A stretch of DNA of 40,339 nucleotides from Escherichia coli (GTDB lineage: Bacteria > Pseudomonadota > Gammaproteobacteria > Enterobacterales > Enterobacteriaceae): the NCBI RefSeq assembly GCF_003334815.1, contig NZ_QOWO01000034.1; one strand, given 5' to 3'. The notes under the pieces were generated by a model. That model saw only the letters and a list, made by a program, of their open reading frames with translations, was not told where the DNA came from and made no database searches. Each line of letters opens with the position of its first letter. Position 1 is the first letter of the stretch. A program made the translations under genes and the position numbers. Below are positions 24,845 through 25,163 of the stretch, in pieces.

Positions 24845-25163
24845 GGCGGATGAGTCCTTATTGCTGCGATTTCAGACAGTTTGCCAGCGATAAGCCAAAC
24901 AAAACTCATCCCTGAGCGGTAAGTCCACAGGATGAGAAGCAAGGGTGAGCGATCTCGCGCAAAAAACGGCTGAATTTTGCGATAACCCCCACATTTTCTG
25001 CGATTTAGCGCCAATCTGAATCGTTAACACGTGACATAGTTTCAGATTTGGACTATTCCTTGGGGTGCTCTTGACAGCTATTTTTGATATGATTTGAGAT
25101 TCAACTCTCAAATTTGTGAAAAATATAAGGTGTTGGAATGATTAAATCCGACCAGGAGACCTG
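24845..25163. promoter_or_regulatory. divergent malS / bax promoter region with MalT-box-like hexamers
   Basis: GGATGA-type hexamers at about 24905..24910 (reverse orientation) and 24929..24934 upstream of malS; malS is an established MalT-dependent gene; ttgaca at 25071..25076 is a possible -35 for bax. Confidence 0.4.

Follow-up and report, generated by a model that had tools for sequence, protein, structure and literature searches.

The 319 bp region between the divergent genes malS and bax of Escherichia coli very probably contains two independent promoters placed back to back, with their start sites about 230 bp apart: a MalT-dependent promoter that serves malS and an extended −10 promoter that serves bax. 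The spacer occupies positions 24845..25163 of the 40,339-nucleotide stretch of DNA analysed (referred to as the window, to which all positions apply unless stated otherwise), and is flanked by the malS coding sequence on the minus strand (22814..24844), encoding a periplasmic alpha-amylase, and by the bax coding sequence on the plus strand (25164..25988), encoding a putative glycoside hydrolase. Both identities come from 100% matches to annotated E. coli genomes. A 601 bp query taken around the spacer has matches in 5,424 of 5,426 complete E. coli genomes, where the flanking genes are annotated as 'malS: alpha-amylase' and 'bax', and a K-12 derivative is 100% identical over the query with the gene order avtA-malS<>bax-xylR-xylH. 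A position in the window (w) is converted to an MG1655 coordinate (g) by g = 3762341 − w.

The comparisons below draw on 80 malS loci from Enterobacteriaceae genomes, from which 75 distinct spacers representing more than 20 genera were aligned. Divergent bax adjoins malS in about 74 of the 80 loci, and the spacer is 303–324 bp long in nearly all of them (pairing and length are both kept in about 71 of 74). The central part of the spacer has low conservation among the orthologues and is deleted in Trabulsiella, where both core promoters are retained. Scanning both strands of the segment 24700-25300 with a two-hexamer sigma-70 consensus detected no promoter, a result that fits an activator-dependent malS promoter and an extended −10 bax promoter, since the scan requires two hexamers. 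The spacer also contains minus-strand open reading frames of 57 and 79 aa, which we do not consider to be genes; the orthologues carry indels of 1, 2 and 10 nt there.

Upstream of malS are two GGATGA hexamers, one on each strand, that a first-pass annotation had described as resembling MalT boxes and as consistent with the MalT dependence of malS. This interpretation stands up well, as both hexamers are conserved, their layout is like that of malPp, and the arrangement is kept in the 75 orthologous spacers. The distance of 60–90 bp from the malS start also agrees with measurement (62–67 and 86–91 bp from the ATG), but the coordinates had been placed one base too far to the left, and the hexamers lie at 24906-24911 on the minus strand and at 24930-24935 on the plus strand.

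There are three putative MalT boxes in all. The first (box 1), proximal to malS, is the decamer AGGGATGAGT at 24904..24913 on the minus strand; it contains the hexamer at 24906-24911, faces malS, and, relative to the predicted malS start, is centred at about −37.5 with its 3′ end near −35. The box 1 hexamer is GGA(T/G)GA in all 75 distinct orthologous spacers (T in 44 and G in 31) with its other positions unchanged, so that the variation is confined to position 4, where the MalT consensus permits either base. The published MalT-box consensus is GGGGA(T/G)GAGG, and the box overlaps the −35 region (PMC7567727). The second (box 2) is the decamer CAGGATGAGA at 24928..24937 on the plus strand, with its hexamer at 24930-24935; it faces away from malS and is centred at about −61.5. 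Its hexamer conforms to GGAKGA in 68 of the 75 orthologues, and the distance between boxes 2 and 1, measured start to start, amounts to 23–24 bp in 58 of the spacers and to 14 bp in another 10, the shorter form being a 10 bp deletion that removes one helical turn and retains the helical face. The third (box 3) is the decamer AAGGGTGAGC at 24941..24950, also on the plus strand, with a degenerate hexamer, GGGTGA, at 24943-24948 and a centre at about −74.5. Together, boxes 2 and 3 form a direct repeat on the same strand, 13 bp apart start to start. In K-12 box 3 matches the decamer consensus at 6 of 10 positions and is thus degenerate; among the orthologues the corresponding hexamer is an exact GGATGA in 21 of 75 (including Citrobacter and Enterobacter), fits a strict GGAKGA in 22 of 75, and is GGGTGA in 41 of 75. 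Direct-repeat MalT boxes in an upstream position are the subject of Vidal-Ingigliardi et al. (1991), as its title indicates. Box 3 had been overlooked in the first-pass annotation.

The core promoter of malS is defined by a −10-like hexamer, CAAACT, at 24878..24883 on the minus strand, which sits within a conserved GGCA(A/C)ACT and lies 22 nt downstream of box 1. The spacing from box 1 to CAnnnT is exactly 22 nt in 75 of 75 orthologues, and the hexamer itself is CA(A/C)ACT in 62 of the 75, with A2 and T6 invariant. The −35 position reads AGTTTT, and the malS promoter has a weak −10 and no functional −35. We predict that transcription starts at about 24871 on the minus strand (24870..24872; MG1655 3737470), 7 nt past the −10 and with a leader of 27 nt. 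The bases AAA at 24872-24870, 5–8 nt after the −10, are conserved in the alignment. The start and the box centres at −37.5, −61.5 and −74.5 are predictions, and the value of −37.5 is partly circular, since the start was assumed to be 7 nt after the −10. A Shine-Dalgarno sequence, AAGGA, can be read at 24855..24859 on the minus strand, and its AGG/GGA core is kept in the alignment. The primary paper on malS, that of Schneider and colleagues from 1992, reportedly discusses MalT boxes. Regulation of malS by MalT is stated in PMC10223318, citing Schneider et al. 1992. Published start-site data for Shigella M90T and those of Kim (2012) list nothing for malS or bax, and SMRT-Cappable-seq data list bax only.

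Taken at the level of DNA sequence, the malS promoter has the features of a MalT-dependent promoter: a proximal box that faces the gene, two direct-repeat boxes upstream, and no −35. In the mechanism we envisage, MalT oligomerised by ATP and maltotriose would bind the three boxes cooperatively, the proximal protomer would stand in for the missing −35 contact and recruit RNA polymerase, and transcription of malS would begin at about 24871; cAMP control or an architectural contribution may come from a conserved CRP-like site at 24978-24993. We infer the occupancy by MalT and CRP, as well as the mode of activation, from the observed layout, conservation and spacing and from the likeness to other mal promoters.

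That likeness was assessed by comparison with the MG1655 regions upstream of malP, malE, malK and malZ. At malPp, TCATCC (−113) is followed at 13 bp by TCCTCC (−100), at a further 23 bp by GGATGA, and 22 nt later by CAAACT. There are several points of agreement with malS. First, the three MalT boxes of each promoter follow one order and share their orientations, with two facing away from the gene, 13 bp apart, and one facing it. Second, both have 22 nt between the proximal box and the −10. Third, the −10 context is an identical 10-mer, CTGGCAAACT, and in neither case is there a −35. The differences are small in number: the distance between boxes 2 and 1 is 23 bp at malPp and 24 bp at E. coli malS (although it is 23 bp at malS in most other genera), box 3 is degenerate (GGGTGA) at K-12 malS, the leaders are 37 nt (malPp) and 27 nt (malS), both predicted, and malS has a conserved CRP-like candidate at about −114.5. 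More generally, the pattern (G/T)GA(T/G)GA-N22-(C/G)AnnnT has exactly one match upstream of each of malP, malE, malK, malZ and malS, and when the start is set 7 nt after the −10, the centre of the proximal box falls at −37.5 in all five mal promoters, with a purine at +1 in four of the five.

The divergent malEp and malKp promoters likewise share with malS a proximal gene-facing box (GGAGGA at malEp and malKp), the 22 nt spacing, the −10, and additional boxes further upstream. CRP sites lie between these two promoters. They differ from the arrangement described here in that both malEp and malKp depend on MalT and form one shared nucleoprotein complex, whereas in the malS/bax spacer the putative MalT boxes are present at malS only and bax appears to have an extended −10 promoter of its own.

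The bax start is available from SMRT-Cappable-seq (Yan et al. 2018, Supplementary Data 1), which reports a capped transcript at NC_000913.3 3736303-3737240 on the reverse strand (b3570) with 38 start reads. Position 3737240 of MG1655 corresponds to 25101 in the window, a value from a single dataset that carries perhaps 1–2 nt of coordinate uncertainty, and it places the baxL-bax start on the plus strand with a 63-nt leader. A northern probe used by Morita (2022) begins at −63 of the bax AUG, which is the same position, 25101; other probes in that paper are not at start sites. The start is 8 nt downstream of a conserved extended −10 sequence, TGaTATGAT, at 25085..25093 on the plus strand (TG at 25085-25086 and TATGAT at 25088-25093). 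The alignment shows a near-invariant TATTTTTGnTA, in which all 32 aligned orthologues agree at TTTTG and TA, and the conserved element can be written as TATTTTTG-n-TA-nn-AT. In nearly all sequences the −10 hexamer differs only at positions 3–4, the two that matter least (TATGAT, TACTAT, TATAAT, TACAAT and TAGAAT). The −35 position holds GTGCTC, which offers no usable −35 hexamer. At an extended −10 promoter the −35 is dispensable, and the bax sequence agrees with the extended −10 (TGn) class of sigma-70 promoters in having the TG one base before TAnnAT, no usable −35, and the start downstream. It is unlike bare extended −10 promoters in that a conserved block at −70..−31 and a palindrome over the start suggest extra regulation.

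Much of the control of bax acts after initiation, as judged from the behaviour of its leader. This contains baxL, an open reading frame of eight codons (MIKSDQET) at 25138..25164 on the plus strand, annotated as b4794 in the MG1655 RefSeq record, whose TGA stop codon overlaps the bax ATG. Across 32 aligned orthologues the nucleotides of TCCGACCAGGAGA do not vary, except for one substitution apiece in Cedecea, Dryocola and kpr-6, and the CCT(A/G)ATGAT that follows it differs at a few positions in some genera. Most orthologues retain the baxL reading frame; its N-terminus varies and its SDQET does not. Weaver et al. (2019) reported that baxL is translated and that a stop codon introduced into it raises bax expression; as regards leader reading frames that modulate a downstream gene, the locus described here is thus baxL itself and there is no difference to report. 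RNA 3′ ends mapped by Term-seq lie within bax at 25175 and 25330 (MG1655 3737166 and 3737011), and overproduction of CspD leads to more full-length baxL-bax mRNA. The effect of the baxL stop codon, the early 3′ ends and the CspD effect are the grounds for placing much of the control after initiation, where the leader reading frame and early 3′ ends would set bax expression. The presence of baxL inside the spacer had been missed in the first-pass annotation.

Two further elements of the bax promoter region have no place in the simple extended −10 description. The first is the conserved block at −70..−31 (25031..25070, plus strand), which in the orthologue alignment reads as GTGACA, TTTC.GA.TTGGACTATT.C and GTGC, with islands at 25032-36, 25040-43, 25050-57 and 25065-68; no extra copies of the block were found in E. 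coli genomes, where it is single-copy. The second is a perfect 8 bp inverted repeat, ATTTGAGA-TTCAAC-TCTCAAAT, at 25092..25113 on the plus strand, which straddles the bax start. In the orthologue alignment 77.6% of its cells are paired and double changes occur in five of the eight pairs, amounting to modest covariation. We rejected the palindrome as a 5′ hairpin of the bax mRNA, since RNAalifold predicts none and the 5′ arm is upstream of the mapped start. Within the block, TTGGACTATTCCTT (25047-60) resembles CAGGACTAATCTTA, a putative RcsB box that precedes bdm, and matches seven of the eight specified positions of TNRGAN4TCYNA, which we take to be the RcsB-box consensus. Its centre is at −47.5 versus −42.5 at rprA, a departure of about 5 bp (bdm, osmC and rprA were compared), and the likeness to an RcsB box provides a weak lead. 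It is conceivable, if rather unlikely, that the bax promoter is not constitutive, with the block and palindrome acting as sites for regulators, possibly RcsB in envelope stress, or, in a variant of this reading, with the CRP-like site coordinating both promoters.

A different alternative concerns malS, which could have a second start far upstream, producing a long leader that covers the bax promoter and the 5′ end of bax in antisense, that includes the MalT boxes, and that couples the two genes through antisense transcription. We consider this improbable. Its attraction is that a malS-5′UTR RNA has been described in Salmonella Typhi, and the title of one report says that it influences bax; the conservation of spacer length (303–324 bp) together with gene pairing in about 71 of 74 genomes would also be accommodated. 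Against it, no promoter-like site is present on the minus strand of 24700-25300. An Rfam scan of 24500-25500 finds no family in support: its sole match, to STnc180, reaches 18.4 bits where the gathering score is 50, and we regard it as noise, being below threshold and absent from the orthologous Salmonella locus, which gives no match. The SMRT-Cappable-seq data contain no forward-strand start at MG1655 37372xx-37374xx, which is weak evidence coming from one dataset and from cells without maltose, and the central spacer through which the long leader would run is the poorly conserved segment deleted in Trabulsiella. If such a long upstream malS RNA were real, it would come in addition to the MalT promoter and not in its place, and the organization of two independent promoters is the one we favor.

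Independence of the two promoters would be compromised if bax too were regulated by the pair of upstream MalT boxes, or by the CRP-like site at the centre of the spacer, so that the spacer is shared in the manner of malEp-malKp. The CRP-like site, TGTGG-N6-TCGCA, is read on the minus strand at 24978..24993 (centre 24985.5) and agrees with 8 of the 10 positions of TGTGA-N6-TCACA. Two or fewer mismatches are seen in 49 of the 75 orthologues, compared with 5–6 in a control segment, and its T, G and TC.CA positions are near-invariant; in the window as a whole, matches of equal quality are no commoner than chance would give (20 seen, 15 expected), and in Trabulsiella the region of the site is deleted. 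We treat it as a candidate, and a reasonable one. Its location nearly midway between the starts (−114.5 relative to malS, where the start is predicted, and −115.5 relative to bax) is in keeping with shared control, as are its conservation and that of the malS/bax pairing, but these distances are unusually large. The MalT boxes for their part are about 155–170 bp from the bax start, and bax is transcribed in M9 without maltose in the SMRT-Cappable-seq experiment. In addition, Trabulsiella lacks the central region and keeps both core promoters, and control of bax by MalT or CRP is not reported in the accessible literature. Shared regulation of this kind seems quite improbable to us, and we retain the interpretation of two separate promoters.

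The bax promoter had initially been assigned a −35 at TTGACA (25071-25076, plus strand), with the poor spacing to TATGAT (25088-25093) acknowledged. Both hexamers and the 11 bp gap are exactly as described, and there are reasons to take the proposal seriously: TTGACA is a perfect consensus on the correct strand, 25–30 bp upstream of the mapped start, and TTGAnn occurs at this position in roughly 40% of orthologues. Nonetheless, it is very unlikely that this hexamer serves as the bax −35, whether paired with TATGAT or with another −10. First, the 11 bp spacer to TATGAT, the only plausible −10, compares with a canonical 16–18 bp and with the roughly 15–21 bp that RNA polymerase tolerates. Second, the hexamer at 17 bp downstream (TTGAGA) is without A2 and T6. 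Third, just 3 of 75 orthologues carry TTGACA, and the bases at this position are unrelated in several genera, Klebsiella and Kluyvera among them. Finally, it sits at −30..−25 of the published start, and that start, at 25101, fits TGaTATGAT. We therefore judge the TTGACA at 25071..25076 to be non-functional as a −35, that is a decoy, and from the conserved elements we propose that the bax promoter is of the extended −10 type, in which TTGACA would play no part.

It should be emphasized that the GGATGA hexamers by themselves show no excess over chance. GGAKGA occurs 24 times in the whole window versus 31 expected, and among 500 Markov-shuffled windows 61% contain a GGAKGA pair within 30 bp and 10% contain a triple within 90 bp. 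A third exact GGATGA, also missed in the first-pass annotation, is located at 24848..24853 on the plus strand, after the Shine-Dalgarno sequence of malS and ahead of its ATG; only 2 of the 75 aligned spacers have it, a 3-nt gap taking its place in most other genera, and with its restriction to Escherichia in the alignment it is probably fortuitous and not a functional MalT box. The composite TCMTCC-N17/18-GGAKGA-N22-CANNNT, on the other hand, has one occurrence in the 40-kb window, at malS, and is found in 0.2% of shuffles, and conservation across genera puts the boxes far beyond chance. The notion that the hexamers arose fortuitously, with malS being activated from a different site or solely by an indirect route, could appeal to the unenriched GGAKGA count, the frequency of pairs in shuffled windows and the fortuitous look of the third hexamer, but it is for practical purposes refuted by the conservation data, as box 1 stays invariant among 75 spacers drawn from over 20 genera, with flanks that are free to vary, its spacing to the −10 is fixed, and the layout is that of malPp and other mal promoters.

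The main features of the spacer, namely MalT control of malS, baxL, and the bax start, are already known or predictable: the first has belonged to textbook knowledge from 1992 onwards, the description of baxL dates from 2019, and a bax start is contained in a public dataset from 2018. The value of the present analysis is corrective, in that it gives positions accurate to the base for the three MalT boxes, for the −10 elements and for the likely start sites. Two lessons follow for reading such regions: a pair of hexamers proves nothing unless layout and conservation support it, and a perfect TTGACA can be a decoy. Were the weak resemblance to an RcsB box to prove true, RcsB at bax would link a putative glycoside hydrolase to cell-wall stress.

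The divergent arrangement of malS and bax, with a spacer of 303–324 bp, is maintained in more than 20 Enterobacteriaceae genera (malS loci L003–L082 compared with window positions 24845–25163); in three Cedecea-like genomes (L071, L072 and L076), approximately 1.2 kb separates the two genes instead. Two mechanically predicted ORFs, each beginning with TTG and encoding 57 and 79 aa respectively, cross the spacer on the malS (minus) strand (24841–25111), and were rejected as coding because orthologues carry indels of 1, 2 and 10 nt in this stretch.

On the malS side, the distance between MalT box 2 (24928–24937, plus strand) and the malS-proximal box 1 (24904–24913, minus strand) is 14 bp rather than 23–24 bp in ten genomes, including Kluyvera and Trabulsiella (L037, L038, L045, L049, L053, L057, L062, L070, L075 and L080). 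This is a clean 10 bp deletion, one helical turn, which leaves the boxes facing the same side of the helix. A third exact GGATGA (24848–24853, plus strand), located between the malS Shine-Dalgarno sequence and its ATG, is present only in Escherichia, lies in an insertion of 3 nt compared with other genera, and is probably fortuitous.

A conserved candidate CRP-like site, TGTGG-N6-TCGCA (24978–24993), is positioned very nearly midway between the transcription starts, at −114.5 from the predicted malS start and −115.5 from the mapped bax start; in Trabulsiella odontotermitis (L057) it is deleted, with both core promoters kept. A conserved block also spans −70 to −31 of the bax promoter (25031–25070, plus strand), and contains GTGACA, TTTC.GA.TTGGACTATT.C and GTGC. 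Within it, TTGGACTATTCCTT (25047–25060) is similar to RcsB boxes, for example the putative one of bdm (CAGGACTAATCTTA), although it is centred about 5 bp further upstream than the box of rprA.

The mapped bax start (25101) falls within a perfect inverted repeat with 8 bp arms, ATTTGAGA-TTCAAC-TCTCAAAT (25092–25113, plus strand). Its arms show modest co-variation from one genus to another, and its loop has a conserved TTCA. Since transcription begins downstream of the 5′ arm, the repeat is not a hairpin of this RNA; an operator is one possible role.

The first-pass annotation missed baxL (b4794; 25138–25164, plus strand), an 8-codon leader ORF (MIKSDQET) that lies in the spacer and has a TGA overlapping the ATG of bax. 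According to published Term-seq data, RNA 3′ ends occur inside the bax ORF at 25175 (plus strand; MG1655 3737166), 11 nt in, and at 25330 (plus strand; MG1655 3737011), 166 nt in. The former is listed as not Rho-dependent. These ends are consistent with premature termination or processing of the baxL-bax mRNA, as discussed by Morita and colleagues. Within baxL, TCCGACCAGGAGA is invariant, wobble positions included, in 32 aligned orthologues with the exception of three sequences with one substitution each; in the CCT(A/G)ATGAT directly 3′ of it, a few positions differ in some genera. This nucleotide conservation points to constraints beyond coding, which may include the bax Shine-Dalgarno sequence or a CspD RNA target.
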